From: Amoebophrya sp. A120
Taxonomy: Eukaryota > Protista > Dinoflagellata
Assembly (NCBI GenBank): GCA_905178155.1
Contig: CAJINV010000023.1
Span: 129,038-170,416 of the forward strand
Direction of reading: 5' to 3'
Length of the DNA stretch: 41,379 bases
Under the pieces are notes generated by a model. That model was given only the letters and a program-made list of their open reading frames with translations. It did no database searches and was not told where the DNA came from. Position numbers and translations under genes: made by a program. Shown piece after piece: positions 8,250 to 40,753 of this stretch (position 1 is the stretch's first letter; every line of letters begins with the position of its first letter).

Positions 8250-8478
8250 TATGGGGGCGTCAGGATCGAAATCGACAAAACCGAAAAAAAATATATGGAA
8301 GTCCTTGGCGGGGACCCTCCGGGACCCCTTTCGATTCTGGCACACTCAAGCATACCGTCGCGGCTAGCTCGAAGGGGTCCGAGTGTGTCAGAATCAAAAA
8401 GCGAAAGCCCGGCACCCCTCCAGGGGGCCCCAGGATTTTTTATTCGGTTTTGCGAATTTCGATCCTGGCGCCCCCATA
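8250..8478. mobile_element. Introner K1 (family I), 229 bp
   Basis: TIR TATGGGGGCGTCAGGATCGAAAT / ATTTCGATCCTGGCGCCCCCATA; perfect TSD GACCT; contains the TAG at 8365. Confidence 0.93.
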
Positions 8479-8589
8479 GACCTCATTGACCAGACAACTC
8501 GCGCACTTTTCGAGCTCCATGAAATTTGCAAAGTGTTTCACATGGACATCAAGCCCGCAAATATTCTTTGGGAGGAGGTCTACACAACA

Positions 8590-8879
8590 TACGAAGTCAC
8601 AAAATGCAGTCAAGTCCCTAGGCCGCAGCGCAGCTGCCGCGAGAATGAGAAACACCCGAGAGCGAGTTTTGTGAGGGCTGTCGGGCGTGTGGTGTTCACA
8701 CACGTATGACCTGGCCGCAGGGGTGGCCAAAGGGAGGCACGGTTGCGCGAGTATCATAGAAGCTTCGCAGGGCATCCTCGGCGCCAGTGGTTTTGGTTCT
8801 GCCACCATTGGTCGTCTTCTTGGAGGATATGCATAAGCTAGCTGCGGCCTGGGTCCTGTTTGCATTTTTCCAATTGATA
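8590..8879. mobile_element. Introner K2 (degenerate singleton), 290 bp
   Basis: Degenerate TIR ...AAAATGCA...AGGCCGCAGC / GCTGCGGCCT...TGCATTTT...GATA; TSD not preserved; removing 295 nt joins catalytic-loop and DFG frames. Confidence 0.65.
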
Positions 8880-21303: not shown

Positions 21304-21851
21304 GAACGACAAAGAAAGTCCCAATTTGCACTGCACCAAGACGCATGTAAGCTACGAGCACGGACAACCCAAGAGTTACACTTGCATTGTATACTAGCGG
21401 CTGCGGCCAGGCCATTGTTTATTAATATTAACTTGCGCGGCAAATGTGAAAGTGTTCCGTTGTGGAATCGTGTACGGGTATCAGGACCAAGATCATGATT
21501 TGATCAAGATCTTCTGGAACTTCAAGGCTTTATCCGTAGTTTTCATTTTCGCTGTCTTGCATTGGCATTGCTCCGCTTAGGCACCACTTACGTATTACTT
21601 GAGAAAGCAATCCCTCTCAGTTAGACGACAAAACACAAGCACTGCGCCCGTTTTCTTTCGATTCCAAATTTTTTCGTGCCAGTTTTTGTCTTCATTTCAC
21701 AAGAACAATAAGGCTCCCCGGTCGTTCGCCGTCTCCGCACCGTTCAGGTTCTTCTCCTCGTTGCAGCAGTGGAGGAGGTGGTGGAGGCGAGCGTCCCTTC
21801 TGCTGATCGATGTACCTATGAAAAGAAACGAATTACGCTCCTTCGAAGAAG

Positions 21852-24800
21852 ATGCAGCTGAAAAGTTTTGCACTTCTGACCGCGGCCTACCTGGTGCCGA
21901 CCTGCGTTCTGTATCACACGTGCTCCTACCGCCGGGAGGAAGTGCAACTGCTGCGGGACGAGAAGCAAAACCCAAGGTTCCTGTTGTACCGAGTAATATC
22001 GTCCTCGGACGGCAAAAACAGTTTGTCTTTGTCACCAGCAGCTGCGCGTTCCGCCGCCACTAGGAAAAAAAGGAGACGCAAGGAGGATGTCAGCAAGGGC
22101 GTGCGAGTCCCTCAGGAGGAAGCGGCGGTCGCAAAAGGAGGCGACGCACCAGGCAGGACAACAACTGACGGCGAGGCAGTTTCGCATAGCCATAAACACG
22201 CAGTCGTCGAGCAAAAATCAGAACAACTAGACACGGAGTCAGCCCGCCGGCTTCTTCTCAAAGAAGCCGCCCGGGAGTTTTCTCAGCTGCGCGAAGTGTG
22301 GAGACCATTGGGCGAGGTACGAGAGTGCACAATCTGCCCTCGTTTGTACCCCTCAAATTAGAGGAGCATATCTACTAGCAAAACGAAGAAACAACTTGCA
22401 GAATGGAGCACTTGCAGGACAAATCCACGGTCGGACGACTTCAATGTGGTTTCCTTGGACATGATCCAGAACTTGTCATGCAAATACCGCCCAAGTGCCC
22501 AGACAGCATTTGGCGTTTTGCATGACAAAAACAGGGGAAGGAGCTTGTGTACTTCCATACGAAAGCCGCGAAGTGCCGAAAGCAGAGCTGGCAAAGACGG
22601 GGAGGCTATTATAAGTAAAAATGTCCCCGCCCCAGAGCTGTCTTCAGGCGGGTTTGCAATTAGTACAGGAACAGTTGTAATGCGCATTCCCATGAGCATG
22701 ATCGTGATGAGAAGCAAAAGCATAAGCATTTTCAGTTGTGTTTTGGAAAAGTTTGTAATTCTGTAAAAAGGATGAAGAGCCATTTTTGTGATCCGGCTGT
22801 GCTTGCTAAGCTGCACTGGAATCTCGAGAGAGGAACTTGTAATACGTAAACTCCCACCAAAACTTCTGCATTTTTTGTGTCGCAAAGTTACCAAGAAAAC
22901 TTTACTCTGCGCCGGGGATGGTTTTTCCCCAGGATAAGAGCTGGAACTTCTGCCCACCACGTCGCCCGCCCGGCTCGGGGCGATCCGTCAGCAAGCCGAA
23001 CAAGAAGACACGGTGCACTCCACCGCCTTATGGTGTTCTCAAACGTTACACTCTCACGTGTTACATGGATTTGTTACGCAAATATACCATCAAGATCCAC
23101 CCGATCAAGCTGCTTCGCATGACAAATTTGCGAAGGGCTAAACAGCCCCTAAATCTGTGTGGAATTTGTAATGCTAGATGCGCAACCTCCTCCCTTTAGC
23201 TTTTGCTTTTTGCGCATTACAAATTCGTGTAACAGTAGTTGAGAATGTAACAGTTGAGAATCCCATACGCCTACCTGGCGAAGTTTTCCAAGCGAGGACA
23301 GGCCTATCGCCGGCTCCTATACCACGAGGTAGTGGTCAAGCTGACCAAGCACCAGAGCACCGAGTTATGGGAGTCTCAAATCGGTTACCTTCTCAACTGT
23401 TACATGAATTTGTCATGCAAAATTGGCACCGACATCTAGTACATGATCAAGCTGCTTCGCATGACAAGTTCTCGATGCCGCGCTAGATAGAATTGCATTA
23501 ATCTGCTCCAAACCTGTAATGCAAAAGGCGCAACCTTCCCCCTTTCACTTATGCCATTCTTGCATTACAAATCCACCATGTAACAGCTGAGAATGTAACA
23601 CGACTTGAGAACTCGTCCATACGAGTATTCCTTAAATTGGAATCGCGTCTTCACGGCAGAAGACACCAAGCCAGAAAGCGGTTCACTGGACCAGCGCGAC
23701 AGAGATGCGGCACTTATCCAGTGCAAAAAAATCGTACTCGTATAGCGATCATGCATTACTTTAGGTAAATCAGCATTACAGATTGTATTCGTCATGCTGA
23801 AGAAATTTGTATATGCATTTGTACGAGGAGTGCGAGTGCGACACTTTTGCACTGGATAGCACTCCTGAGCCAGCAAATCTCGTCGTCCACTTCGAATATG
23901 CCCTGAAAATTAACCATCCCCATCCAATTTGTCATGCAAAGCACGCATAAAGTCCTTTGTTTGTCATGCAAAAAATCGATGGGGATGGGTATTAATTTTC
24001 ACGGAATATCGAACGCAGAAAGCGAAGAGCCTCCTCCTGCCCCCGCTTCCGCGGGCTCTATAAGTATATCCAAGAAAAAAACTGTGTTAGTGTGACTTTC
24101 TTGGAAGAATAGCATCACAAATTTGCTCTGCACGACAGAGAGAGCCTGTCATGCGCGCCTAGTACGTGAAAACACGTACGAAAAGAGCTTCTGATGCATG
24201 TCCAGCATGACAAGTGTAACTGTTTTGCACTTTCTGCATCACAGACTTACACTTACACAGTTTTTTTTTTGCATAAAGTAGGACGCCAGTGGAGTACTTT
24301 GTTCAGAGCAACGTCTTTGCGGTTGCGGATGAAAGCGTGCGGTATATCGCGAGGAGAAATCCCCCCTCTCCATATTGACAAGGTACGTTTTCGAAAATTT
24401 GCGTTGCTGATTTGTGACCGCAAATCGTCTCTGTGTTGCATGAAGGCAATTCCACAGACAGCCGCCGCATTCTACAGGCGGTTTGTCATGCTGTGGCTCC
24501 TACAGCGTAGAGGTCTGCCAAGCTAAGCGCATAGGCAAAAGTAAACCTGTCAGCTGAGGCTTGCTATGGGCCTGCAGTCCTCGCAAGCAAGACAACTTTG
24601 ATTCGTGCACACAAATCCAGCATCAGAAACTTCGTTTTGATACGGGGAGGGGGGGCTTTTCATTCTGATACAGTACATGTACGCGAACATGGCGATGGAC
24701 CTGCAGAAGCGGTGGTATGCACTGCAAAAGTATCGCACTCGTACTAATTGCAGTTATGCATATACAAATTTCTTTTTCAAGCCAAATGAGCATGACAAAT

Positions 24801-27800
24801 TCCATTTGTCATGCTGAGCTAATTTGTATTGCAATACTACGACTAGGACTACGATACTTTTGCAGTGCATAGGCGGAAGGCAAAGGTGAAAGTGAGCAAC
24901 CTGGACACGGCCCGGATGACGCTCTGTCCCTACTTGAAACTGTATCCTGTGCAAAAGTACCGCAAGTCGTCTTGCAGTCATGCATTACAAGTCTTTTTCT
25001 TAAGCTAAATCCGCATTACAAATTTTCTTTCTCATGCTGAGGCAATTTGTCATGCATTTACACGCGTGCGATACTTCTTTTGCAATTCATAAACTGGCTG
25101 CGGCATTGAGAAGTAGCGGAGGACGTAGTGGATCTGCAGGAGCATCACCGCCTTCACCCGCCGCCCCATCAGCAACGGCTCTTTCCTCCTCGGAGGACAT
25201 AAAGCCTCTTCCTCCTGCTGCTGTCGTGAGTGACTTTGAGGCCGAACGGGAAGAGATCGAGAGGCTGGCGCGAATCGTTTTGCAGGACGGGAAATCGCAA
25301 GGAGACGAGGCTTATGCGTCGCAAATATGTCTGGGTCTGGAAACATGTAAACTTCTGATGCGCATTTGAGAGCAGAAAAAAATCTGTCATGCATGGACCG
25401 CAAAAGTTGCTCATTTCTTGTCACCCAAAGAGGGAACTTGTCATGCGGATTACTTGGGCCTCGCCTAACCTGCTCAAAACCTGTGTTGCTAGGACTTGCA
25501 TGCTAGACCTTCCGTGTCATGCACAAACAGCATCGCACTCATTCAGACCCAGACATATTTGCATTTGATAAGGCTTCTAATATCAAGAGGACTTCATCTT
25601 CTGGAGGCTCCACGAACATCAAAATGCACGCCGCCTCTGCTCCACCCCCCTCGGTATCATCTGCAAAAGCATCGCGCCGCTCATAGAAGTACTTGACTGC
25701 ATGACAGAGCTGACTTCTTAGTAAATTTGGCACGACAAGTTCCACTTGTCGTGGTGCTGAGATGAAAATTTGTATTGCAATAATTTCTTCCGCTTCTATT
25801 TCTATACCGCGATCATGCTTTTGCAAGGCATAGTCGGTCTCGGTGAACAGGGCCAAATCTGCGGGCTGCCTCTGGGTCACGGTTTGTGGTCACTTTCGCT
25901 CCTTCCTGTTTAACGCGTGGAACCTGAAGTCTTTTTTCGAGCTAGCGAACACCAACATGCACTGCGTGTATTTCTCCGTCGTCGTGCGGTCCGACGCGGA
26001 AGCGCCCGGCAAGGTGTGGTGGGGCAATCGGGGCGCGGAAAAAATGAATCAACTGTTTGACGTGACCGTGTGGCTCCAGAGGATCCAGAACGCCGTATTA
26101 TGGATTGCAAATATGTCTGGGTCTGAAAGGTTGGAACTTGTAATGCTGTCTCTAGATTCCAAAAAAATCTGTATTACATGAGCAGCAAGAGGAGTCAGCT
26201 CTTGGCACGCAGAGAGGGCATTTCTCATGCATAATTAGCATCAAGAAGCTCTCAAAAAATCTGTGATGCTAGCACCAGCATCACAGACCTCACGGGTCAT
26301 GCAAAATGTGCATAACAAGACCCAGCTCTTCCACACCCAGACATTTTTGCAGTTGATACGTATTTTCCAACACCAATTTCTTCTACGTTGTCGTCGACCT
26401 CGAGAATCTATCCTGTGCAAAAGTATCGTACTCGTACGAATTGCAATTAAGCATGACAAGTCTTGTCCTGAAGGTAAAACAGCATGACAAATTCCATTTG
26501 TCGAGCTGAGGTAATTTGTAATGCAATTACTACTAGTACAATGCTTTTGCAATTCATAGAATCCGACCGTCCGGTCCCAAGACGGCGAACACGTTAGCTA
26601 CCTGGTGGCCAAGCGACTGCGAAAATTCCACGACACGTTTGCCCACGTCCTCGCGAAGATGACAGTGACAGGAGGAACCGGAACGCCTCGTGCTGGTAGA
26701 AGTGCCGAAGACAGCACCAAGACGCGTCAAAATCAAAATGAAGTGGATCCTGCTCATCATGATGATCTTCAAGAAGACCGCTCGTTTCCCGACCTGTACC
26801 AGCAAACGCACCTGATCACGAACGGCAAGAAGTCTTTCTACATTCTCGGAGAGAATGCGGATAGCCGACAGGAAAAATTACGGTTGAAAGTTTTCGACAC
26901 TGTGAAGCAAGAGTACGAAAGTTTCGTGAAACTCCAGAAGGGCGCCGACAACTACAACCACTACCTCCGTACCGGAGATGAAAATAGCCGGGTACTGCAC
27001 CGACGAAACGCGGACGGGAGCAGAACGGTTCGGAAGGATAGAAGCGTCGGTGGTGCTGGAGCGGGACAAAGTCAAAGTAGTAGTGGTGGAGACCACTATG
27101 ACGGCACAGTGGAAGATCTTGCTGGTGATCCGCTGCTGTTCCCAACGGACACACCGTTCGAGCACTCGCTGTATGCAATGCAAAAGCATCGTACTAGTAT
27201 GAATTGCATATACAAAATAGCCCAGCATTACAAATTCAATTTGTAATGCTCATTTACCTTGGAAAAAAGATTTGTAATGCATAAATGCAATTTTTTACTA
27301 CGAGTGCGATACTTTTGCACAGGATACGCTGGAACGATGGCTCCCCGGTCCGTTCCCGCCCGACTGGCCGGTCTCGGCGAGCAGAACCTTCGGCGACTCC
27401 TCAGTGGAGCACGTCTTCTTGCTATCGCAAGAAAAAAGTGTTACAGTTACACACTTGTTGGAGTTTCTGCAGCACAAAGTTGCTCGACATGGCCAAGAAA
27501 ACCTGTGATGCAGCCCACCAGACTATGTATAAGGCAAAACACGAATGAAATGAGGTTAGCAAGCATTTCCTGCATGACAGAGGTTGTCTGTCTTGCTTGT
27601 CTCCCATCAGAATGTGTAACTGTAACACTTTTTTCTCACGATACTTGCGCACGCGCCCCGATCTGGTCTACGACTTATGGCGTTCTCAACTGTTACATTC
27701 TCCACTGTTACATGTTGAATTCGTGATGCAAGAATGGGAAGAGTGAAAGGGGGAAGGTTGCACCTGTAGCATTACAAATTCCACCGCGCAGTTATTTTAG

Positions 27801-30800
27801 GCGCGGCTGATACCATTCGCAAACTTGTCATGCGGAGCAGCTTGATCGTGAGGATGATGGTGGCGCTTTTGCATGACAAATTCATGTAAATACGGTTGAG
27901 AGTGTAACGATTGAGAACCCCATACGACTCACAAATTGATTGGGGGCAGGTCTTCCTGGCGGCCCAGGTCACACGGCGCAAATGGTTCCTGCAGCGAGCC
28001 CAGCAACTGGAACAACTGCAGGACGAAGCAGAGGAGCGACACGCAGTTGCGGAGAGCAGCGGAAGTGGCACAGCTGCAAGTAGCACAGGTGCAACTTCGT
28101 CCCTCACCGCAGAAGCAGCTGCCGGCTTAAAGGCGGACTTAGAGTCCCCGCGGGCACTGCAAACCGGTCTGCGCGCTTTGCTGCGGAAGAGGCTGCAAAG
28201 CTTCCACCCAAATGTCCTCCTGGGCTGGGTGGCGCTGCATCAGGAGGCCGCGCTCACCATGAACGACCCCAATGAAATATTCTACTTCGGTACCGAGGCC
28301 CTGATGGACATCGCAAACAGCATCTGCCTCGACCACGGTGCATTCAACGGGCGGTGGCCTTTGGTCATAGTGCCGAACACGCTTCTCGGGATCATCCCTG
28401 GTCGCAAAATGTCCCTCGTCGCGCCGGGAGACGAAACTGCAACGGGCAGTATGTTGAGCAAGCACAAGCAGGGGAGCACAAGCACTTTCATCGCCGCTCC
28501 TACTTTATCTTCTTTGTCCAAAAAGACCGAAATAAGAACCTCTTCCGCGGTCGGGGGCACGACGTCGAGTGCGTCTGCGAATGGTGCGAAAATTCTGTCC
28601 GCGACAGAGCGAGAAGAAGCAGAGTTTTTTCAACGCCACAAGATCGAAGCGGACGAAAATATGCCCAAGATGGGGCTCGAGCTCATTGGCCTGTGGAATG
28701 CCGCCAAGGGGGCCATGGAAACGAAAATGCAGTCCGCGGAGGTATCAACTGCAAACACGTCTGGGTCTGGAAAGGTTGAACCTGTATTGCGTGTTTCGCA
28801 TATCTATGGAAATCTGTATTGCATAAGCAGCAAAAAATGATAAAGCAACACACTTGCGGCATGCAAAAGCACAATTTGTAATGCGTTCTGTGCATGAGAA
28901 AGCGTTTGAAAAAAAAATTGTAATGCTGCACTGCACTTAAAGGCACAGCCAATCATGACCACTCAGCATTTCAAGTTTCAGACCCAGACTGACATACTTG
29001 CACTTGATAGGAGGATGACTTTTACCAGAGTGACCTAGTCGCGAAGCTGTTGGAGTATGCTGTTCCATATCGTGTGCAAAAGTATCGTACTCGTATTGCA
29101 ATCATGCATTACAAATCATCTTGCCAAGGCAAATCAGCATTACAAATGTTATTTCTCATGCTCAGGAAATTTGTAAATGCATTTATACGAGTGCGATACT
29201 TTTGCAATGCATACTCCAGCTACTTCTTCGGACGGAACGAGGAAAGTGTCGGCATTGCAGAAACTCTTACAGGAGGAAAAACGACAGGCACGGTCACAGA
29301 ACCAAGCAACTAGTCCAGTACGCATTGCAAAAGTAGTTAGTAGTACCGGTGGAATTGTGTTCATGATTAGATAGGAGTTGTAGCTGCACTAGGATCGAAG
29401 CGAAGCTGGCATAAATACAATTCTTGGCAAGGAAAAAATGTGAATTTGCAATGCTGAGTGAAAAAGGCAAAGTATGAAGCCAGATCTTCCTCTGTATCTG
29501 AAATTTAAATGTGACCACACCTCAAGAACAATTCCACTTCAAACGCGATTCACTTTTGCACAGCATAACCATCAAACGTCGTGCACAGCGATGTAATGAA
29601 ATCGGGTCAGCTGCTCCTCACCGCGGTGCGGCGGTTTTTTCAGAAATTTTTCGCTATCTATTGTGAGGCAAAATCCCCAATCCCCATATCGAACAGGCGT
29701 GCTTTTCAAAATTTGTGATGCTGATTTGTGGCCACAGGCACAGCTCAAGTCTGTCTTGCAAGAGAACAAAGCCAGGGCTTCCGCTGCATTTCGCAGGCGA
29801 TTTGTAGTAAGGCTGCTATGCTACTAGGGCAGACGTCTGCCGTGCTAATTACCTACCCCAAGCCACCCCGACCCCTTTCCGGGCTTTGTATCTGTCTGCA
29901 GTCCTCCACCGCAAGACAAATCCGATCTGTGTACGCAAATCCTGCGTCACAGATTTCCATTTCGATATGGAGAGGGGCGATTTTTCCATTTAATACTATC
30001 GGCGCCGTCTACATGCTGCCCGGAACGCAGAGTGGGGTTCAAAACCGGGTGAGGCTATCCTGCGCGCGTTTGCTAAACGGCAACCACCAGTGCGCCGTTG
30101 GTTGCATGATCCCCGGCCAGGCGCAGGCGTCGGGCGCCAGCAACCTGAGTCACAACTTCGGGCTCTTCTACGACCTCATACAGACGACACAGCCGTCGTC
30201 TGGCTCCCGGGATCAACATCATGAGGAAGCGCATTACAATATCCTGAGTAAAAACGTACCCACAGCAGAGTCAAGATGGAAAATCTGCTAGACAAATCGG
30301 CCAACTTTGCTTGTTTCGCATGACAAATTTGGACGCGTAGTGTAGTGCTGTTTGAGCTAGTTAAGCAGCATTACAGATCTAGTCTCTCATGCTGATTGGA
30401 GCATGACAAATTTCAAAACACCCTTAGAAAATGCTTCTCATGGGGCTCCGCATGACAAACATTTTAAGCATGCAGATTTGCATGACAACTATGGTGTGGG
30501 TACGTTTTTACTCAGGATATACAAATACAAATTCGAGTTTCCGCTAGTTGACGTCACGATAGGGTCGACCATGTGGACGCGGCAGAAGGTATGACAGTGC
30601 ACAACTCCCCCTCCCCCTCATTTGTATTGCATCCACAGCAACACAAGCATCAGCAAGCATGCCGGTTCTGCATGACAGATTTGTATTGGAGTATAGTGCT
30701 ATTTGGGCTACCAGAACTTGTCATGCAAACAGTGCCAGGAGGCAATGGCTGAATTAGGTATTTTGCGTGACAAAGAGGGGGAGGGGGAGTTGTGCACTGT

Positions 30801-30859
30801 CATAGAAGGAGCCCATGGGCAACCCCGCGAACGGCAATGTGTTTCAGCTGGTGGGGTGA
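21852..30859 (+). CDS. Putative glycosyltransferase-like membrane-anchored/secreted protein, 1254 aa, 24 exons
   Basis: Exons (left TSD kept): 21852-22317, 22565-22606, 22942-23028, 23273-23365, 23627-23714, 23864-23896, 24014-24066, 24281-24344, 24676-24715, 24877-24942, 25097-25312, 25576-25654, 25838-26098, 26364-26408, 26564-27171, 27332-27422, 27649-27675, 27930-28742, 29015-29067, 29219-29318, 29573-29658, 30001-30239, 30525-30589, 30810-30859 = 3765 nt, open to TGA. N-terminal hydrophobic segment; motifs VTVCGHFRSF, FLRTRPDL, NDPNEIFYFG recall uncharacterised GT-A-like proteins (function is inference). Confidence 0.85.
22318..22559. mobile_element. Introner 1 (family J, degenerate), 242 bp
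   Basis: TACGAGAGTGCACAA...TTGTGTACTTCCATA; TSD CGAGG/CGAAA; interior resembles introner 23. Confidence 0.72.
22607..22936. mobile_element. Introner 2 (family B, degenerate), 330 bp
   Basis: TATTATAAGTAAAAATGTCCCCG...CGGGGATGGTTTTTCCCCAGGATA; TSD GAGGC/AGAGC. Confidence 0.7.
23029..23267. mobile_element. Introner 3 (family C), 239 bp
   Basis: TATGGTGTTCTCAA...TTGAGAATCCCATA; perfect TSD CGCCT. Confidence 0.93.
23366..23621. mobile_element. Introner 4 (family C), 256 bp
   Basis: TATGGGAGTCTCAA...TTGAGAACTCGTCCATA; perfect TSD CGAGT. Confidence 0.93.
23715..23858. mobile_element. Introner 5 (family D), 144 bp
   Basis: TATCCAGTGCAAAA...TTTTGCACTGGATA; perfect TSD GCACT. Confidence 0.94.
23897..24008. 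mobile_element. Introner 6 (family E), 112 bp
   Basis: TATGCCCTGAAAATTAA..CCATCCCCATC / GATGGGGATGG..TTAATTTTCACGGAATA; perfect TSD TCGAA. Confidence 0.93.
24067..24275. mobile_element. Introner 7 (family F-like), 209 bp
   Basis: TATCCAAGAAAAAAACTGTGT...ACACAGTTTTTTTTTTGCATA; perfect TSD AAGTA. Confidence 0.92.
24345..24670. mobile_element. Introner 8 (family G), 326 bp
   Basis: TATCGCGAGGAGAAATCCCCCCTC...GAGGGGGGGCTTTTCATTCTGATA; TSD CGGTA/CAGTA. Confidence 0.9.
24716..24871. mobile_element. Introner 9 (family D), 156 bp
   Basis: Perfect 20-bp TIR TATGCACTGCAAAAGTATCG; TSD GGTGG/GGCGG. Confidence 0.93.
24943..25091. mobile_element. Introner 10 (family D), 149 bp
   Basis: TATCCTGTGCAAAAG...TTTTGCAATTCATA; perfect TSD AACTG. 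Confidence 0.93.
25313..25570. mobile_element. Introner 11 (family A), 258 bp
   Basis: TATGCGTCGCAAATATGTCTGGGTCTG...CAGACCCAGACATATTTGCATTTGATA; perfect TSD AGGCT. Confidence 0.94.
25655..25832. mobile_element. Introner 12 (family D), 178 bp
   Basis: TATCATCTGCAAAAGCAT...ATGCTTTTGCAAGGCATA; TSD CTCGG/GTCGG. Confidence 0.9.
26099..26358. mobile_element. Introner 13 (family A), 260 bp
   Basis: TATGGATTGCAAATATGTCTGGGT...ACCCAGACATTTTTGCAGTTGATA; perfect TSD CGTAT. Confidence 0.94.
26409..26558. mobile_element. Introner 14 (family D), 150 bp
   Basis: TATCCTGTGCAAAAGTAT...ATGCTTTTGCAATTCATA; perfect TSD GAATC. Confidence 0.93.
27172..27326. mobile_element. Introner 15 (family D, inverted relative to 19), 155 bp
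   Basis: TATGCAATGCAAAAGCATCG...CGATACTTTTGCACAGGATA; perfect TSD CGCTG. Confidence 0.93.
27423..27643. mobile_element. Introner 16 (family F), 221 bp
   Basis: TATCGCAAGAAAAAAGTGTTACAGTTACAC...GTGTAACTGTAACACTTTTTTCTCACGATA; perfect TSD CTTGC. Confidence 0.95.
27676..27924. mobile_element. Introner 17 (family C, inverted relative to 3 and 4), 249 bp
   Basis: TATGGCGTTCTCAA...TTGAGAACCCCATA; perfect TSD CGACT. Confidence 0.94.
28743..29009. mobile_element. Introner 18 (family A), 267 bp
   Basis: TATCAACTGCAAACACGTCTGGGTCTG...CAGACCCAGAC..TTGCACTTGATA; perfect TSD GGAGG (GT-AG compatible). Confidence 0.93.
29068..29213. mobile_element. Introner 19 (family D), 146 bp
   Basis: TATCGTGTGCAAAAGTATCG...CGATACTTTTGCAATGCATA; TSD TTCCA/CTCCA. 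Confidence 0.92.
29319..29567. mobile_element. Introner 20 (family D-like, degenerate), 249 bp
   Basis: TACGCATTGCAAAAGT...ACTTTTGCACAGCATA; TSD TCCAG/ACCAT. Confidence 0.8.
29659..29995. mobile_element. Introner 21 (family G), 337 bp
   Basis: TATTGTGAGGCAAAATC...GATTTTTCCATTTAATA; perfect TSD CTATC. Confidence 0.92.
30240..30519. mobile_element. Introner 22 (family B), 280 bp
   Basis: Perfect TIR TATCCTGAGTAAAAACGTACCCACA; perfect TSD TACAA. Confidence 0.96.
30590..30804. mobile_element. Introner 23 (family J), 215 bp
   Basis: Perfect TIR TATGACAGTGCACAACTCCCCCTCCCCCTC; perfect TSD GAAGG (GT-AG compatible). Confidence 0.96.
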
Positions 30860-31845
30860 AGTTGCAGTTGCTCAGACGTGGTATTCGGAGCACTACTTCG
30901 GAATAATATGCAGGTTCTTCCGGGTAGTACATCCATGTGGTCGTCGTCGATTTCGTGCTGCGGAAATAAGTTCTTCGTCGATATGGACCACCAACATTTC
31001 CGTCGTTTATGTAAGTAGCAAGCTCTAGTAGATCTACGTTCTTCTTTTTCATCTTCTCTCCTTTGCGGACGCCAGCGCGGACGTGGAAGTTGTGGTATGC
31101 AAAATGCGCAACCGCATCCAGCTAACTCGTACGCAACTGTACTGCAATTATACTGAAGTGGTTGTAGTTCATGTGCTTATGCATACGCATCGTTCTTCAA
31201 TTTGAATCATGTTCTGCACACGGCGCACAACGTTTCCTGCATCCTGACTACATGATACGTCTATCTTCAAAACGAACGTGACAGCACTAAAGCGGCTGCG
31301 TGATATGAGGATAAAAAATAATGCCTGCTAGCTAATATGACGCTGGCTCTTGCGGTTCGAACCAGATGCGGACTGGTTGCTCAATTGCAATGTGTTTTCT
31401 TCATCTGTCTGTAATTAATACTACAAGAAAGGCTCGAGCTCGACACACGCGCGGAGCCGGAGTTGCTTTGCATAAAGACAAGAAAAGCATCGCAGCTCTC
31501 CTTGTTGATCACAATTGCAACTTTTTCCGGTCCACCTCCAAGCGACTTTTTTATTTTTTTCTTGCTTTCGAAGACGCAATGGATCACGATCACCAGGACA
31601 GCCTCGTCCTTGCAGCTGGATCTGCTCCTGCTTAGCAAACTTGATTAGCTTGCAGAATTATCGCAACCGTCATATTTATAAAGACGAAAAAACCTAGCGC
31701 TACTTCATCCTTCGTTTGCCATCTACTTTTTTGTTGGATATTTCCAGGGCGATGGCGCCACAAAAATTTTCATAAAGCACCAAGGCTAGAGCCGGCGACA
31801 AGAAGAGGCAGATAGTACTTTCTTCACCTTGCGCAACTTCACCTC

Positions 31846-34800
31846 ATGGAGGCGGGGAGCGGCAGTCCCGGCCAAGGCCTAATATGGGCCCCTCTGGACC
31901 AGAACGGCAAACATTTCATGCTCGAGGTTGTCACTTTCGTGCGCTTCGAGCTCGTTCCCTTCGTCTGCAGCGCGATCGTCGTGCTGATTTCAATTCTAGC
32001 ACTCTGCTGCACAACAACCGATGGTGGAGGAGATGGTACGACTAGAGGTTGCTCGTTTTTCATCTTTTCCTTGTGCAGGAGAAGCGCAAGAAGCGCAGCA
32101 CCGGTTCGCGGGGGCGAAAGCCCGCAGAAAAATACCTCGGCAACATCGTCCTCCTGCAGCGACTTTTTTCTAGCGACGATTTTCTCTTTCAAATCTTCGA
32201 GAGTCTACGAAGAGGTACCTGACGCAGTGGCGCTCGTCGGAAAGCCTGCGGGTGATGTTGATCATGCTGCACATCATCAAGAGCCGCAGGCAAGCGGAGC
32301 ACGACTTGTAGACCACAGCAAGAACCGGCGGAACCGTGAGGACATCGAACTGACACATCAGAGCGAAATAGCGAAGGAACAGGACGACGACGACGACGTC
32401 GATAGTGGCGGGCGGAGTCGAAGCGGGGACGTCGAGGCAGATGAAGTAGCACGACTGCAGCGAGAGCGACCCCAGCAGCACAACTACTACTGCACGCAAA
32501 CTACTTCTATCAAGCGACGAAAGCTTCTCAAAGTGACGCTTACCCTGTCCGTACTCGCATTTGCCTGCTACGTCGTCTTCTCTTCCACCGAGCTCATGTT
32601 CCTCCTATGCATGGCAAATTATATGTCTGGGTCTGGAAGAGGACAAGTTTGTCATGCACATTTTCCCTGAGTCGTGATGTCTGTGATGTATGCCTTAGCA
32701 TCTTCACATATTTTTTGAGTGCTTGTCGATGCGCATCCCGCATGACAAGTGTTCTCTGCGCGTAGCCAATACAATATATTGACTCCCCTTGCTGCCCATG
32801 CAATACAGGTTTTTCTAGCATCCCAATGCAGCATCACAAGTTCTTGCACTCTTCCAGACATCCAGGGATTTTTGCAGATGATACCTCCCGCGGGTGTACA
32901 AGGTTCGCTTCGGGGACGCGGAAACTTTTCCCACCGTGCCGGAGCGCTGGCGGGAGTGTACGGCTATCAAATGTAAAAATGTCTGGGTCTGGAAGATTGC
33001 AACTTGTGACGCTGTCTCTGCATTCTAAAAAAATCTGTATTGCATGATAGATCAGCTAGCAAGAGGGGTCCAGCTCCAGTTTGTGCTACACGGAAAGGGC
33101 ATTTCTCATGCGGGATAGCATCAGAAAGCCCACTAAAAATCTGTGATGCCAGGTTATGCATTACAGGCGTCATGGGTCATGTAAAATCTGCATGACAAGT
33201 CTGGCATTCTTCCAGACCCAGACACTTTTGCATTTGATAACGGCAGTGGAAGAGCAAGAACGCACCAGCAGGAGCACAGGAGGAATTTTGGATAGTGGAA
33301 GCAGGCGACACAGTCCCAGCAGCACAAAGAAATGGCGGTGGGATCCCGAGACCGTCGTGGGCCCGCTCGGGAAGCTTATGGATAGTAAAAATGTCTGGGT
33401 CTCCTGGAAGATTAGCACTTGTAATGCCAGCTTCCCATGCCTAGAGCTAGAAAATCTGTATTGCATAATCAACAAAAGTCGCAGCCGCTTTTGTCATGCA
33501 AAAACGCAGTTTCTCATGCGGATTGCCCATGGGAAAGCGATTTGGGAAGGTGTCATGCCGGACTGCATTCGGAAGTGTTTTCATCATGCACATTTTAGCA
33601 TCACAAGTTTCCAGACCCAGACATTTTTGCATTTGATAAAGTTGAAGAAGCCACCATTGTGGATCTTCGTAAACGACAGCAACTACGGCATCGGAAAGAA
33701 GATATGCAAGCAAACGGCGCCCGGTGTGAACCTGATAGTCAAGAAGTGTCTCGAAAGCTTCGAGCGGCACCTCCGGCCGCATTTCGAATTTGTGTACCTG
33801 AACGAGAAAAACATCACCAAGTTTCTCGATTTCGGAGACGGCCCGGGACTGCTGCCCCGGTGGCACGAGAGCCTCCCCGAGGGAGCGCAATACGCGGACT
33901 TTGCCTCGCTCTCGTTGCAGTACCGGTACGGGGGTGCCTACGTGGACTGGGACGTGCTGCTACTGAACAATATCAACCCGTATTGGGATCTGTTAGAGCA
34001 CTTCGAAACAGTGTTGATCGGCCCCACCAGCGTGCGTGGGTACGGCACAGCCTACGACGAGCACGGGCTGATCCTTTCCCTATTGTGAGGAAAAATCCCC
34101 CCTCCCCACGTTACCAAAGCGGGACACTTTTGAAAATTTGTAATGCTGATTCGTGACCGCAATCGTCTCTGTATTGCAAGAAGGCAAATCAACAAACCCT
34201 GCCGCGTTCTCCCAGCAATTTGCAGTGCTGTATGGCCTACAGAGGACGCGCCTGCCTCGCTAGGTGCCTACACCGAAACGCCCTTACTCAGGTTCTGTAT
34301 CTACCTGCAGTCCTCCATTGCATGACAAAGCAGATCTGTGTACACAAATTCCGCATCACAGATTTCCATTTCGATGTGGGGAGGGGGGATTTTTCCTTTT
34401 GATATTCCCGCCCCCGGAGTCTGTGGGCGGAGTCCAGCTTGCGGCTGATATCAACTGGAAAAGTGTCTGGGTCTGGAAACTTGTAATGCTTGGCTGGGAA
34501 TAGTGAATGCTGATGCTCTGTAATGCACAACCTTGCATGAGAAAGGTCTGCGCCGCTTAGTGTTGCGCTTCACGCATGACGAACTGCGTTTTTGCATGAC
34601 AGGCAAGAGGCCCTTTTCCTGCTCATGCATCACAGATTTGAGAGTCATGCCAGAGAAGCATGACAAACGTGCACTCTTCCAGACCCTGACCCAGACTACA
34701 TTTTTGCAATGCATAGCTGATGCTCCAATCCTACGCGGACTATGTGAAGATATCAAATGTAAAAATGTCTGGGTCTGGAAACTTGTACTGCTAAAAGTGA

Positions 34801-36737
34801 ATGATAGACGCACTGCAATACGCAGCTATGCATGACAAATTTTTTGGCTGCTATGTCTTACGTATTCCGCATGGCAGACTGCGTTTTTGCATGACAGGCA
34901 AGAGAACCTTTTCGTGCCTATGCAACACAGATTCTCGAGTCATGCCAGACAAGCATGGCAAACTTGCATTCTTCCAGACCCAGACACTTTTACAATCCAT
35001 AGAAGAGCCACCCCGACAATCTGCGCAGGTTCTCGAGGCAGGAAGTCATGGACAGCTTGGCAACGCCAACGTCGAGGGGAGCATCGGTGGCAGCTTCGTC
35101 CTCATCTGCGACGAGTGCTAGTAGTAAGATCCCTAGCGGTAGTACTAGTACGATGGAGAAAAAACACGATGCTGATGATCCCACCAAGGTTTTGAAGCAA
35201 CTCGGGCAACATTTCACGCTGTCCAAATACTGGGAAGTCACGCACAACGGTGTTGTTGCCAGACAAAACCACTGCAGCTTCGTCCGACTGTTATCGCAAG
35301 AAAAAAGTGTTACAGTTACACATTGTGTTGCAGAACACGCATGAGAGGCAACCTCTGTCATGCACGAAATGCTTTCAAACCTTATTTCACACGTGTTTTC
35401 CCGTAGGATTTCTGCAATGCAAGTTTTCTCTCTCATGCAGAGAAATTTGTGTTGCTGGATTGACAACAAATGTGTAACTGTAACACTTTTTTCGTGGGAT
35501 AACTGTACATGGGAAGTCAGTACACACCGGGAGGTTTCGCGAAGAACCTGTGCGTACCCACTGCAAAAATGTCTGGGTCTGTAAGAATGCCAGACTTGTC
35601 AACATGCAGGTTTTCCATGACCCATGAGGTCTGGTATGTAGGACAGAGCATGGCAGATTCTGTGAAATGAGTTCTACCATGCCTATCCTGCATGAAGAGA
35701 AGCTGCCTCTTGGTTAGGTCAAAAGTGGGCAGCTTTCGGCATCATGCGTCGCAGATTTTTACAGATTCAGATTTAGCATGACAACTTGCTTTGTTCCAGA
35801 CCCAGACACTTTTGCATTTGATAGTGCGAAATCGACGTCGCGACCGACTTCGACCTGGTTCGCCGAATCTATGCTAGCGCGATGCTGAATGACCTGCGAC
35901 TAGTGCATTTGTCGTATGCGAAGTTTTATCAACTGCAAACATGTCTGGGTCTGGAAACTTGTCAACATGCAAGTCTGTCAGTAATGAGTGCACTTTAATA
36001 GTTGGCCAATCATGACAAGTTTTTGAGCTCCTGCCTGTTGCGTACTTGTTACGCTTACGCATGGGGGGATCCGCATTTTCGTGACAGACAAAAGTATCTC
36101 ACTCTCCCCGTGCCTAAGCGTCAACACATAGTTAAGAGTCATGCCAGACACAGACTAGCAAGACAGATTTCGCACTCTTCCGGACCCAGACATATTTGCA
36201 ACGCATAGCTTCGCGTTTTATGACGAGCCGAAACGGAACCGGTGCGCCATCCCCAGTCTGCAACAATGTCCACTGGTCGATATGTTGCGGGCGTTTTCCC
36301 GAAACGAAATTGTGGACGCAAAGAGGATCTTCGATACGATGTTGAGAAGCAGTAGTACAAAAAAGGAGCTTTCGTCTCCAGATACATCAACAACTGGCGC
36401 TGATGTCTCAAGGACCACTGGAGCTGCTATTTCAACATCTGCTGTTGCTGACGAAGTGGTCCAGATTGAGCTTGCGGGCGAAGTAGACGAGAAGCGGTGG
36501 CTCTTCGACGGCAAAGACAACGCCGGCGTCCGAACCTGGCTGGTGCAGTACAACGGGCAGGCACGACCTGGAAGTGCTGCTGTATCAGAAGGGACAGCAG
36601 CAACATCAAGCGGAAATATCAAGTTTTCCCGAGAGGCCAAGCACGCAACTAGCGATATCAGCGCCGGCATCCTAGCCCCGAGTGCAGCGCAAATCGCCAA
36701 GAAAAAACTGCAAGAAGAAATTTGCCAGTTGAAGTAA
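31846..36737 (+). CDS. GT32-like / capsular-polysaccharide-synthesis-type DxD glycosyltransferase, membrane-anchored, 809 aa, 10 exons
   Basis: Exons 31846-32605, 32889-32964, 33245-33376, 33644-34080, 34410-34448, 34721-34750, 35007-35291, 35507-35554, 35829-35926, 36213-36737 = 2430 nt, open. Signature KKCLESF...VYLNEKNI...ADFASLSLQYRYGGAYVDWD; two N-terminal hydrophobic segments. Confidence 0.88.
32606..32883. mobile_element. Introner 24 (family A), 278 bp
   Basis: TATGCATGGCAAAT..GTCTGGAAGA / TCTTCCAGAC..TTTTGCAGATGATA; perfect TSD CCTCC. Confidence 0.92.
32965..33239. mobile_element. Introner 25 (family A), 275 bp
   Basis: TATCAAATGTAAAAATGTCTGGGTCTGGAAG...CTTCCAGACCCAGACACTTTTGCATTTGATA; perfect TSD ACGGC. 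Confidence 0.95.
33377..33638. mobile_element. Introner 26 (family A), 262 bp
   Basis: TATGGATAGTAAAAATGTCTGGGTC...GACCCAGACATTTTTGCATTTGATA; TSD AAGCT/AAGTT; in frame and stop-free. Confidence 0.92.
34081..34404. mobile_element. Introner 27 (family G), 324 bp
   Basis: TATTGTGAGGAAAAATCCCCCCTCCCCAC...GTGGGGAGGGGGGATTTTTCCTTTTGATA; perfect TSD TTCCC. Confidence 0.95.
34449..34715. mobile_element. Introner 28 (family A), 267 bp
   Basis: TATCAACTGGAAAAGTGTCTGGGTC...TTTTTGCAATGCATA; perfect TSD GCTGA. Confidence 0.93.
34751..35001. mobile_element. Introner 29 (family A), 251 bp
   Basis: TATCAAATGTAAAAATGTCTGGGTCTGGAA...TTCCAGACCCAGACACTTTTACAATCCATA; perfect TSD GAAGA; interior similar to adjacent introner 28. 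Confidence 0.94.
35292..35501. mobile_element. Introner 30 (family F, inverted relative to 16), 210 bp
   Basis: TATCGCAAGAAAAAAGTGTTACAGTTACAC...GTGTAACTGTAACACTTTTTTCGTGGGATA; perfect TSD ACTGT. Confidence 0.95.
35555..35823. mobile_element. Introner 31 (family A), 269 bp
   Basis: TACCCACTGCAAAAATGTCTGGGTCTG...CAGACCCAGACACTTTTGCATTTGATA; perfect TSD GTGCG. Confidence 0.93.
35927..36207. mobile_element. Introner 32 (family A), 281 bp
   Basis: TATCAACTGCAAACATGTCTGGGTC...GACCCAGACATATTTGCAACGCATA; TSD decayed (AGTTT/GCTTC) but removing 286 nt restores frame. Confidence 0.88.
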
Positions 36738-37205
36738 GGCGAAAACCGAGTGAGCAAATAGAGGACCAAAAACTAGAAGATTACCACCATGCAATAGAAG
36801 GATGACATTCATATTCAATTTTTGGAACAGACGAGAAGCAGTCTCGTCGGTCTCTGTGCTGCCCCATGTTCATTATTGGACACTTCTGCTCAGTATTACC
36901 ATGATCCGCTTTTGCAAGCGTCTCATCGTTTCCGGTGCGGTGTGGGCAAATGAGAGCAAGATCGGCATGCGGAAGTTTTGTTTATACGGATGCAATTCTC
37001 TTTGTCCTCATGCAGTTTTTATGTACACACAGGTACTTCTATCGGCATGGCTTTTTTTTGGAGGGATTCTTAAGTGCTATCCTTTGTTGCGGTGGCTCCA
37101 TATCTATTGATGGGAACTACAGCTGCGTAGCATGTCACAAAACTAGCAAGTACTTAATTAATACTACAGTGACAAGATGAAGGCCCATGCAAACCGTGGG
37201 AGGTC

Positions 37206-37519
37206 ATGAGGTCCTCGTGGACGACGTCTCGAGTGCCGTTTTCCCTGTTATCACAGGAAAAAACTGCTTCACTGTGATGATCTTGCAAGATCTGCGTCAC
37301 AAGTTTGTTACACATGAGCCAGAAAATTTACCATGCGCGCTTCCAAAGGGAAAACACCGTTAAAAAGTCAAGGACAAGGTCTTGCAGGTGTGGCAAGACA
37401 AATTAGTTCTGTGCTTCATTCTATGCACCACAAGTCCACAGTGAAACAGTTTTTTTTTGCGATACCTGTTCTGCTTTCTCTACTACGTCGTGGCGGGGTC
37501 GACGCACTTACTTTTCTGA
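37206..37519 (+). pseudogene. Truncated duplicate of the transporter's first exon, interrupted by introner 33
   Basis: Reads MRSSWTTSRVPFSL|FCFLYYVVAGSTHLLF* versus MRSFSWTTSGAVPFSLFCFLYYVVAGSTHLLL at 38171. Confidence 0.85.
37249..37464. mobile_element. Introner 33 (family H), 216 bp
   Basis: TATCACAGGAAAAAACTG...CAGTTTTTTTTTGCGATA; perfect TSD CCTGT; empty homologous site at 38215-38219. Confidence 0.96.
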
Positions 37520-38170
37520 TCCCGGTTTACGCACCTGGCTGCTGCGCTGATCCCCGTTAGCGCGACGGAGTCACGTTCCCGCCTCCTGTCGTGTTGTATC
37601 CTAAGAGAAGATGAATTTCATTCATCGTCGTCGTATTTAGTAAATAAGACGACAATCATGAAGGTGTTCTACCTCTTGGGAGTTGCGTTGGCACCGCTGA
37701 GGGCAACTGTCCCCCCCCACCCCAGACGGGGACTTCGGGGCTCGAGATCGAGGAAAAGCCTACTTTAACTGCGAACACTGTCGTTTCTGGGGCGCAAGAT
37801 GCTCCTGCTGATTCATCACCTTTGCGCGCGGCGGACGCCGCAACGCCGAGCGCGGCAGCCGTGGCGTCTTCTTCAGGCACGGCGTCTTCAGTCTTCTTCT
37901 CGTGTTTCAATTGAGACACGGCATGTTCGTGACAGGACGAAGAACCCGAGAGATTTACAGATCGAAAAAATGTTCTCTAGATCTTTTGTTTTTCGAAGAA
38001 GATGAAGATTAAGGTGTAGTTTTTTTTCCTTTTGAGAAGTTCCATCTGCTTTCACTAGTCCGCCTCGAGAAAAGCCCAGTTGTTGCTAGAATCTTGACAG
38101 ACCGCGTCGCACTCCTCGAGATCCGAGTTGCTCGAATTTTGACAGCCCCCCGTGCAAACCTTGGGAGGTC

Positions 38171-40753
38171 ATGAGGTCCTTCTCGTGGACGACGTCTGGA
38201 GCAGTGCCGTTTTCCCTGTTCTGCTTTCTCTATTACGTCGTTGCGGGGTCGACGCACTTACTTCTCACAAAGGCGACGGAAAACAAGAATGCGAGCGTAT
38301 GGACGTGCCAGGATCGAAATCGTCAAAGTTGAAATAGTTTGCCATGCATAAAACCGACACCAGTGGGAAGCCCACTTTTCAAGCGGCGCATGACAAATTT
38401 GCCGACCACCGGAATCCAATTTGTCATGCTGTTTGGGCACAGAAGACTGTTTTTGTCGTGCTAGTTTAGTAGCTCTATTTCAAACCCTAAACAGGCTTGC
38501 AATCGGCCTCACTTGCCATCCCGGCAAGACAGGCACTTCATGCCTTGCATTTTATGCATGACAAAGCATTTCAACTTTGTCGATTTCAAACCTGACGCTT
38601 CCATAGAGCGGGCGGCTGGAGTACGATACCACTGTGGTCTATCCCACGAAAAAACTGTTTCACTGTGACGATTTTGCAAGATCTGCATCACAAGTTTGTT
38701 ACACATGACAAAGAAAACTTGGCATGCGTGCTTCCTAAGGGAAAACACAGCTAAAAATCCAATGTCTTGCATGTGTAGCAAGACAAACACACTTGCGTTC
38801 CGTTCTATGCATCACAAGTTCACAGTGAAACAGTTTTTTCTTGCGATATGGTCGTCTCGCTGGTGGAGGTTTTCAAAGCCATTTTTGCGATTAATATGGT
38901 TCTGCTGTTATCCTGAGTAAAAACGTACCCACACCAGAGTCAGGATGGGGATTTTGCAACACAAACCTAGGAGCTTTGTGAGTCACGCATGACAAGTTGC
39001 ACTATGCAGTGTAGTGCAGGTTAGCAAGTGCAGCCGCATCACAGATTCATCTGCTCATCCTGTTCACAGCATCACAAATTCCAAAACACGACTGGAAATG
39101 GCTCTCATGGGGATGCGCGTCGCAAGTCTTCCTGTCTTTGCAAATCTGCATTACAACTCTGGTGTGGGTACGTTTTTACTCAGGATTGCTGTTCGGTAAA
39201 AAAAACAACGGAACGACAAAGTCCGAGATAGCGGAGCTGTGCAAGCTTGGAGAGCCTCGGTATGCCCTCCCCGGGCTCTTTTACGCGGTGCAAAACAACT
39301 GCATCATCCTTGCGGTGCCGCTCCTACACCCCCACGTATTCGGGCTTTTCAACAATTTGAAGATCGTGTCCGCCGCTGTGTTTTCGTCCCTCTTTTTGCG
39401 GAAGCGCTTTCGGGTACGGGAAAAAGTCGGCCTCCTGCTGCTCATCCTTAGCTTATCAAATGTAAAAATGTCTGGGTCTGGAAAAGTGGAGCTTGTAATG
39501 CGTGTCATGCATTCCTGGAAAATCTGTGTCCCATGAGCAGCAAAAGACAGGCTTTCTTTCTTGTCATGCAAAAACGCATTTTGTAATGCGTGCTAGGCAT
39601 CAGCAGGCCTCTCAAAAACTTGTCATGCTTGGCTGCCATTGGAGGCGTTTCAATCATGCGAAATTCAGCACCACAAGTTTCCAGACCCAGACATTTTTAC
39701 ATTTGATATAGCTGCGTCGTCAGCAAGTGGGAGATGGCCACTTCGGCCGTGCGTCAATTGATGATCCGGCCGAACAATGCTGCTCCGGACGAGCGGCGGC
39801 AATCGGCAACAATGAAGAACGCTAAAGGAGAAGCTGAAGACCAGCGGTTTCTCCTAGGTCTGTCCCTGACGCTGTTTGCAACCAGTGTTTCCGGTCTCGC
39901 GGGGGTCATCAACGAACACGTGCTGATATCCAGTGCAAAAGTACCGTGCAGCTCGAATGAATTGCAAATCTAAATCTTTGTGCATTGCAAATCCAGTTGT
40001 GCATTGCAAATCCAAATCTTTTTCTCATACGTAAGTCGAAGTCCGTGTCCAGACTACAAATTTTCATTGCGCAAATTTGCGATAAGCTTTCTGCTAATAC
40101 GATACTTTTGCACAGGATAGCTGAAGGTAGGGGGCAAAGTGGGTCATAGTTTCTGGATAAAAAACTACTACACCTACCAGTATGGGATTCTCTTCAATCT
40201 GTGTGGCAACGCCGTCAGTTATCTTTTGCAGAATTACCATCCCGGAATGACGAGTGGTGTGTTAAATACGTCAAATGCTAGTTCTTTTTCTAATACCACA
40301 AAAAATTCTTCTGATCTTTTTCTCAAGAAAACTAGCCCTTCTCTACTTCTCACGGGCTTCACCCCCCTGGTTTGGGCCCTGGTTTTTGTGTGGGTTCTCC
40401 TCGGCGTATCCGTGTCGTTGGTCTTCAAGTATCTGGACAACACGGCAAAATCCTTCGGAAATCCGCTGATAGTGTTTGTCACCTCGATTTTTTCGCATTT
40501 TCTCTTCGCGGACACAAACTTAGATGTGTACTTTTTCCAAGCTCTGGCATTGTATTTTTGCTCCGTCGCGGTGTATTCAGGAACTACTGCACCGTTCTTT
40601 CAGGTCACAGGTCTTGCTCCTCCTGGAGGTAGTTTTAGTTCTTCTAGTTCTGTTGCTACATCATCAACAAGGAACTTTATTTCGCTCGTGACAGAAAGTA
40701 GAACAGATACAGATGCAGATACCAGTACCATAAGGGAGAAAAAAAATGCCTGA
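38171..40753 (+). CDS. Nucleotide-sugar transporter (SLC35A, CMP-sialic acid/UDP-galactose transporter-like), 437 aa, 6 exons
   Basis: Exons 38171-38297, 38611-38639, 38854-38908, 39193-39453, 39714-39926, 40125-40753 = 1314 nt. Family motifs YDTTVVVSLVEVFK, YALPGLFYAVQNN, NLKIVSAAVFS, SGLAGVINEHVLK, SFWIKN, VFKYLDNTAKSF; multiple TM segments. Confidence 0.93.
38298..38605. mobile_element. Introner 34 (family I), 308 bp
   Basis: TATGGACGTGCCAGGATCGAAATCGTCAAAGTTGAAAT...ATTTCAACTTTGTCGATTTCAAACCTGACGCTTCCATA; perfect TSD GAGCG. Confidence 0.94.
38640..38848. mobile_element. Introner 35 (family H), 209 bp
   Basis: TATCCCACGAAAAAACTGTTTCACTGTG...CACAGTGAAACAGTTTTTTCTTGCGATA; perfect TSD TGGTC. 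Confidence 0.95.
38909..39187. mobile_element. Introner 36 (family B), 279 bp
   Basis: TATCCTGAGTAAAAACGTACCCACACCAGAGT...ACTCTGGTGTGGGTACGTTTTTACTCAGGATT (last base T); perfect TSD GCTGT. Confidence 0.95.
39454..39708. mobile_element. Introner 37 (family A), 255 bp
   Basis: Perfect 31-bp TIR TATCAAATGTAAAAATGTCTGGGTCTGGAAA; perfect TSD TAGCT. Confidence 0.96.
39927..40119. mobile_element. Introner 38 (family D), 193 bp
   Basis: TATCCAGTGCAAAAGTA...TACTTTTGCACAGGATA; perfect TSD GCTGA; internal ATTGCAAATC x3. Confidence 0.94.

Follow-up and report, generated by a model that had tools for sequence, protein, structure and literature searches.

In the dinoflagellate Amoebophrya sp. A120, 29,850 repeated introns belonging to 1,954 families have been described, with no transposase found in the strain and with both mobilisation and splicing left open (Farhat et al. 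2021, PMC7789003). The signature of these introners consists of inverted repeats made of TAT, seven variable bases and at least three A, together with short direct repeats (PMC7789003). One of them, family 38, is listed with '5-bp TSD, TA/TA Termini' (TSD, target-site duplication) and is reported to have homology to Copia/Gypsy, reminiscent of Ginger, and most of the others among 41 of the 58 A120 rows of the same table have 'Unknown' as superfamily (Gozashti et al. 2025, PMC12130899). Here, we analysed a stretch of 41,379 nucleotides of A120 (contig CAJINV010000023.1, positions 129,038 to 170,416; hereafter the window), in which three plus-strand genes are interrupted from 21.8 kb on by short, AT-richer inserts. 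We found that these inserts share an internal motif that is conserved, spaced by helical turns and probably bound as double-stranded DNA.

We delimited 38 elements within positions 22318-40119 and one more at 8250-8478, giving 39 window elements. TAY..RTA termini were found in 38 of the 39, the exception being 38909-39187, which ends in ATT, and the 5-bp target duplication is exact in 30, has one mismatch in 5 and two or three in 4. Frames of 1264, 819 and 464 codons are regained once each element and one copy of its duplication are taken out. The elements bear the hallmarks of MITEs (miniature inverted-repeat transposable elements), as they are short, non-coding and multi-copy, with terminal inverted repeats (TIRs) and a target duplication. 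They also show those of A120-type introners, namely TAT-N7-AAA inverted repeats, short direct repeats at the borders and removal from mRNA mostly without GT-AG, and they are like the published A120 elements in their ends, direct repeats, non-canonical splicing, many families and transposase-free interiors, as described in the text of that study (PMC7789003). The same text, figures aside, yielded no mention of an internal motif, a spacing rule or phasing (PMC7789003). Since their ends match the published signature, the elements are known A120-type introners, and the question is their internal motif.

Subterminal arrays or internal enhancers are features of Ac/Ds, En/Spm and phage Mu. As reported for MITEs and related elements, the Emigrant/Lemi1 transposase binds subterminal repeats of the MITE (PMC1636448), internal sequences of mPing tune its transposition (PMC9921582), and the BED sites of Hermes form an analogue of a subterminal array (PMC10368747). 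Repeated internal sites that bind a transposase or tune mobility are already known in MITEs, and the hallmark of such arrays, a short conserved motif repeated inside the TIRs in both orientations, is present in the window elements. In all six systems, as far as these accounts go, the motif is confined to a single family, which has a transposase of its own. In contrast, the window elements carry one motif over at least 15 families with differing TIR cores and unalignable interiors, show 31-33-bp pairing and 10.5-bp phasing, and double as introns. In the literature consulted, figures and most subscription papers aside, we found no published mention of a single helically phased motif across many TIR families in intron-elements.

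A first-pass annotation of the sequence had claimed that one internal motif recurs across families, several times in most elements, and is rare in exons. The motif is real, as all 39 matches to its strict 10-mer form lie in the 9,005 element bases (22 forward, 17 reverse) and none in the 8,797 other bases, with a mean of 0.28 and a maximum of 3 in 300 dinucleotide shuffles of the elements. The 8-mer core gave 89 matches inside elements and 1 outside (shuffles, 2.4, maximum 8), with at least one in 34/38 elements and at least two in 27/38. Recurrence within most elements thus holds for the 8-mer but not for the strict 10-mer, which is found at least twice in 12/38. The examples cited were recovered: introner 9 has its hairpin pair at 24790, and TTTGTCATGCAAA occurs at both 23928 and 23960 within a 112-bp element. 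The pattern was kept fixed because an unconstrained expectation-maximisation motif search drifted to a loose TG-N5-CA palindrome with 66 matches outside elements. The ApiAP2 site TGCATGCA was also tried, and its octamer occurs once in 95,697 element bases and is not enriched. The motif seems to resemble the RBFOX GCAUG element and the Sox2-Oct4 composite site, presumably by chance.

Additional copies came from a metagenome scan of a second assembly with the commonest (F0) TIR, which returned at least 184 stretches, from which 176 loci were taken. Elements called in these loci numbered 362, and the 356 under 400 bp, together with the 39 of the window, gave 395 elements that fell into 38 clusters, 15 of them multi-copy (at least two copies). 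Tests were weighted by family because fetching with the F0 TIR made one family 188 of the 395 copies. At least one site with no more than one mismatch was present in 394/395 elements. In loci of at least 2 kb, 688 of 960 exact 9-mer matches fell inside called elements; of the remaining 272, 194 are clustered at distances of up to 120 bp, as uncalled or cut elements should be. Viral contigs gave 0 matches to the F0 TIR.

Family-weighted TIRs read TAT at positions 1-3 (0.99-1.00) and A at positions 11-14 (0.70-0.88). These common TAT-N7-AAA ends and the 5-bp duplication suggest that the families likely form one superfamily. The first-pass description of the TIRs as unrelated was thus overstated for the ends and the duplication, and stands for positions ~15-30 and the interiors, which are family-specific; those of large families align across families only as short matches of roughly 20-60 bp. 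At TIR positions 16-30, the two arms covary mildly, but subfamilies confound this signal. At positions 4-8, the arms of one element often differ without covariation, and the same few variants recur across families. TA..TA termini and TIRs are likewise found in IS3EU/GingerRoot, according to the accounts available, and an integrase-related DDE enzyme would be the likely type of mobiliser (PMC10045372, PMC6839031). Because duplications in IS3EU/GingerRoot are usually 6 bp, as against 5 bp here, the elements were not filed there; no transposase was found in 40 window frames, and the word 'subterminal' has 0 occurrences in the GingerRoot paper. A120 family 38 has the same duplication length and termini but differs in being about 808 bp long with open reading frame fragments, and this integrase-like family is, from its published description, the best lead for the mobilising enzyme (PMC12130899).

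We observed that the sites follow spacing rules. The outermost ones lie 37-52 bp from the element ends. Same-orientation pairs at 31-33 bp reached a family-weighted 27.1 compared to 4.15 ± 1.5 expected (maximum 8.2 in 200 randomisations), and this pairing occurs in at least half the members of 14/15 multi-copy families, with a spacer that is not conserved. Divergent pairs form a ladder near 15, 36, 46, 57, 67, 88 and 98 bp, with a Rayleigh R of 0.42 at 10.4-10.5 bp compared to 0.15 ± 0.08 when the null holds tandem pairs rigid. This value was reached by 0-1 of 400 nulls, and the 99th percentile for the best of all periods was 0.418. R was 0.27 at 11 bp, 0.64 on family consensuses and 0.48 without F0-type clusters. 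The helical repeat of B-DNA is 10.5 bp and that of A-form RNA about 11.

Furthermore, the motif is more conserved than its surroundings. Its columns exceeded other interior columns in 11/11 aligned families, with a mean difference of 0.106 compared to -0.008 (maximum 0.031) under a shifted-mask null; F0 was sampled at 79/188 for these alignments. Of all core positions, the degenerate fifth (middle) base is conserved least (0.74 vs 0.85-0.96 for the other seven), which is the pattern that binding specificity, and not simple descent, would be predicted to leave. Among F0 copies, divergence at conserved motif columns scarcely increases with divergence elsewhere (slope 0.02). In five old elements, whose duplication has at least two mismatches, core density is 0.23 per 100 bp, compared to 1.10 in 35 other elements (p=0.003, post hoc).

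The first-pass annotation had left open whether the motif acts in DNA or in RNA. Runs X3, X4 and X5 were treated as RNA because they skip introns that the DNA-like run X1 covers at flat depth; this is a guess, hence 'RNA-type', and X3 and X4 are one sample. Raw-read runs X9 and X10 yielded 12 and 8 reads and added no information. In RNA-type contigs, the skip equals exactly the element plus 5 at each of the 7 element joints listed, and removal of three and six consecutive elements accounts exactly for two contig gaps, of 116 and 542 letters. Two elements served as motif-free controls, neither assigned a strand:

8250..8478: F7-type TIR, exact 5-bp duplication, long fold-back interior, zero sites; removed (+5) in X3/X4, kept in X1
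8590..8879: decayed element with TAC..ATA ends and no remaining duplication, zero sites; removal in X3/X4 spans 8589-8883

X1 runs unbroken across both, and the motif-poor 29319-29567, 37249-37464 and 39927-40119 are likewise removed in RNA-type contigs. The depth of X1 near 8250-8478 hints that this interior exists in few copies, a hint set aside because depth does not give copy number. The motif is thus not required for removal from RNA; the contigs show removal, not splicing efficiency. Since removal needs no motif, the ends are the place to seek splicing signals. In the element with a decayed duplication, the cut at 8589-8883 begins 1 base ahead of the left TIR and ends 4 bases past the right TIR, and for 35927-36207 a contig that starts at 36210 is compatible with -1/+4, -2/+3 or -3/+2 but not with 0/+5, which suggests that splice sites are set by distance from the TIR ends. 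A GT-AG reading is possible in 18/256 oriented elements with exact duplication. At 35466, an element end is joined, in a single contig of run X5, to letters with plant-type telomere repeats among them.

The host strand could be called for 305/395 elements, whose sense strands hold 430 forward and 468 reverse cores (p=0.22). Forward cores are lacking in 55/305, reverse cores in 56 and both in 12. Families sit in genes in both orientations, including F8, in which all sites face one way (4:2); F0 orientation is 60:87 (p=0.03), which is not significant over 10 families. The variable base showed no covariation in would-be hairpins (15 vs 15.2, 18 vs 18.3, 54 vs 47.7 and 3 vs 4.4 expected). The motif lies on both strands, is spaced by helix turns and is absent from some copies that nevertheless undergo splicing; it therefore likely serves DNA binding, as the landing pad of a protein that helps the elements jump, and not as a splicing signal.

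The 38 TAY..RTA introners at 22318..40119, with motif consensus (T)GCA(T>A)(G/T/C)ACA(A/G)(A/G)T, are given below without strand. Numbers are site centres within the element (> forward, < reverse, ' one mismatch), and F denotes a family cluster.

22318..22559: singleton, duplication decayed (2 mismatches); 100>' 161< 206>
22607..22936: singleton, duplication decayed (3 mismatches); 74< 152<' 185<' 236<'
23029..23267: F5; 92> 143< 189>
23366..23621: F5; 50< 97> 154< 200>
23715..23858: F1; 62> 80<'
23897..24008: F8, 112 bp, minimal unit with a single tandem pair, 38< 70<, 32 bp apart
24067..24275: F2; 49> 67>' 85< 128<' 142> 173>
24345..24670: F4; 92<' 144< 246>' 279>'
24716..24871: F1, introner 9 of the first-pass annotation; 78> 96< 114<'
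24943..25091: F1; 38<' 43> 74> 92<' 110<
25313..25570: F0; 46<' 77< 131< 174<' 207<'
25655..25832: singleton; 48> 79>' 121<'
26099..26358: F0; 45< 129<' 168< 183> 215>'
26409..26558: F1; 46> 77> 113<
27172..27326: F1, inverted relative to the five other F1 copies in the window; 57> 75< 106<; removed in RNA-type contig
27423..27643: F2; 50>' 86< 153> 171<'; removed in RNA-type contig
27676..27924: F5; 51<' 97> 155< 199>; removed in RNA-type contig
28743..29009: singleton, F0-type TIR; 45<' 77<' 139< 153>' 181< 227>'
29068..29213: F1; 42> 73> 91<'
29319..29567: old element, duplication decayed, without core, one 1-mismatch site; still removed in RNA-type contig
29659..29995: F4; 60< 98<' 256>' 289>'
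30240..30519: F3; 82> 132> 150<' 165> 214> 244>
30590..30804: F6; 38<' 52>' 84> 134< 179>'
32606..32883: F0; 49< 81<' 138> 198>' 216>' 229>
32965..33239: F0; 45<' 76<' 81>' 144<' 157>' 182< 197> 229>
33377..33638: F0; 48< 85<' 120< 140<' 179<' 225>
34081..34404: F4; 63< 94<' 243> 276>
34449..34715: F0; 38< 75< 90>' 129>' 149> 182> 213>
34751..35001: F0; 38<' 83> 122>' 142> 175>' 206>'
35292..35501: F2; 37<' 51>' 69< 126<' 144<' 161<'
35555..35823: F0; 97>' 225>
35927..36207: old element, duplication decayed (3 mismatches), without core; 87>' 235>'
37249..37464: F2, without exact core; 29<' 49>' 148>' 180>'; removed in RNA-type contigs
38298..38605: F7; 47<' 94> 129< 161<' 230>' 262> 272>'; removed in RNA-type contigs
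38640..38848: F2; 49> 67>' 85<' 142>' 173>; removed in RNA-type contigs
38909..39187: F3; 51>' 82> 131> 164> 243>; removed in RNA-type contigs
39454..39708: F0; 45< 54<' 113< 133< 172< 218>'; removed in RNA-type contigs
39927..40119: singleton, without exact core; 59>' 78>'; removed in RNA-type contigs

Judging from the sequence, we consider it fairly probable that the motif represents phased double-stranded-DNA binding sites for one trans-acting protein, either a transposase domain or a host cofactor, that boosts transposition. A single such protein would bind the site array on one face of the duplex and help the introner transposons assemble their ends and jump, the motif thereby acting as a transposition enhancer; copies that keep the motif would spread more, and the motif would be favoured. 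The binder could be an integrase-like DDE transposase, by way of a second DNA-binding domain, or else an architectural protein of the host common to many families. We lean slightly towards a shared or host factor, as TIR positions ~15-30 vary between families and the motif does not. Because motif-free elements have also transposed, the motif would be an enhancer and not a strict requirement. The first-pass proposal of iterated sites for one factor thus fits with the enrichment, with the conservation above the flanking interior in every aligned family and with the 31-33-bp pairing and divergent phasing; its transposase branch agrees with these results, as does equally a host DNA-binding cofactor, and its alternative, an RNA-binding mark for removal, does not. 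A conserved, phased motif gives the A120 introner families a common internal signal and separates the mobilisation problem from that of splicing. The search for the mobilising protein also gains a defined double-stranded bait together with a spacing rule, and these introners could be detected independently of family.

Several observations weigh against an enhancer bound by one protein. A Pfam search of 40 window frames, 20 of them from a 4-kb element, gave 0 transposase or integrase matches. No autonomous element was found, no long coding element was seen among the TIR pairs in the loci, and no transposase was evident in the longer elements there. The families may share deep ancestry and hence not be fully independent, and the F0-TIR fetch made nearly half of the sample (188/395) one family. 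Among 361 copies, those with an exact and those with a 1-mismatch duplication did not differ in post-insertion decay in any class. In the left half of the window, at least five TAY..RTA-like elements have no motif or almost none, and one of these has an intact TIR and duplication. As for spacing, there is no peak at 63-66 bp and hence no continuous lattice, same-orientation phasing beyond 31-33 bp is weak (z 1.2, block null), phasing of convergent pairs is not significant (p about 0.08), and the 18-bp convergent spacing loses significance under family weighting. Sites are organised as phased pairs or small clusters and not as a filament-like lattice. From the window alone, a 32-bp lattice (14+18) had seemed possible, but it too was lost under family weighting.

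A bolder proposal, which we hold to be possible but doubtful, is that one enzyme complex moves all families, reading only the TAY-N7-AAA ends and the helically phased internal array and wrapping the element like a recombinational enhancer; TIR positions ~15-30 would then serve to clamp the intron ends in RNA, for which self-complementarity alone would suffice. A DNA code inside and an RNA clamp at the ends, if true, would explain about 2,000 families without family-specific transposases. Alternatively, the motif could be bound, as a phased DNA site, by a chromatin or transcription protein of the host that serves tolerance, packaging or read-through of insertions, without aid to jumping and under host selection after insertion. 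All DNA-level signs fit this equally, motif-free elements gather in the GC-rich, repeat-rich left half, and the divergence of F0 motif columns is nearly flat against divergence elsewhere, yet old elements in transcribed genes are tolerated although largely without the motif, which is moreover all but missing from the remaining non-coding DNA (with 14 relaxed sites across 20.5 kb of 1-21500), making such a role unlikely.

A neutral relic appears improbable to us. In this case, the families would stem from one internally repetitive fold-back ancestor, and motif and spacing would persist by descent and inverted-repeat conversion. The common ends and duplication length do point to one superfamily, the elements are roughly dyad-symmetric, and a few motif-free relatives have transposed. 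However, large-family interiors cannot be aligned beyond those short matches, and site number, order and orientation vary by family while the spacing rules hold. The motif is also conserved above its surroundings while its middle base varies freely, and length changes of at least 3 bp are somewhat rarer inside tandem pairs (47/424 vs 58/350). We give even less credence to an RNA mark, by which a protein on the pre-mRNA motif, or pairing of inverted copies, would flag the element for non-canonical splicing. Splicing does lack an explanation, given how seldom GT-AG can be read and that U1 was not found in these genomes, according to the text of the published study (PMC7789003). Motif bases are also predicted to be paired more often than other interior bases (0.74 vs 0.57), and contigs do not measure splicing efficiency. 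In contrast, the absence of strand bias, the 12/305 genic elements without a core in either orientation, the lack of covariation of the variable base in hairpin pairs and a period of 10.4-10.5 instead of 11 all argue against it, and removal of motif-free elements refutes the mark as a requirement.

The three host genes of the right half are:

21822..30859, plus strand: host gene A, 1264-codon frame after excising 23 elements and one 5-bp duplication each; also evidenced by RNA-type contigs
31816..36737, plus strand: host gene B, 819-codon frame after excising 9 elements and 5 bp each; DXD glycosyltransferase (PF04488)
38091..40753, plus strand: host gene C, 464-codon frame after excising 5 elements and 5 bp each; nucleotide-sugar transporter (PF04142)

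Two exon frames of host gene A were scanned without a Pfam match, and the start of host gene C is approximate, as its frame was taken stop-to-stop. The start of the transporter gene is locally duplicated (37170-37520 vs 38140-38290); one copy holds the element at 37249-37464, and the other, near 38220, is the matching empty paralogous site. An Rfam scan of the window gave 0 matches.

Among the additional loci, L026 contains a 1104-bp F7-type element (505-1608) whose motif cluster is confined to the first ~215 bp and is followed by GC-rich repeats, forming an asymmetric subterminal array. In L036, an F0 element (632-1465) carries about 570 bp of foreign sequence, with no long frame and 0 Rfam matches.

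In the GC-rich, repeat-rich left half of the window, where the motif-free elements cluster, an intron of about 4 kb (9260-13257; an RNA-type contig jumps from 9259 to 13258) has a degenerate F5-like TIR and a 4-of-5 duplication. It lacks the exact motif, gave 0 Pfam matches in 20 frames, and is possibly a decayed long element of the same superfamily. The motif is also absent from two TA..TA elements with near-exact 5-bp duplications and GC-rich repeated interiors (3015-5187 and 14215-15260), the first of which has long, internally repetitive TIRs. At 1041-2507, a repeated 11-12-bp word in alternating orientation forms a subterminal-like repeat field with a different motif. Finally, two divergent kinase-like frames lie at 7888-9559 and 18706-21303, the former broken by three TAY..RTA-type introns and resuming at 13258.

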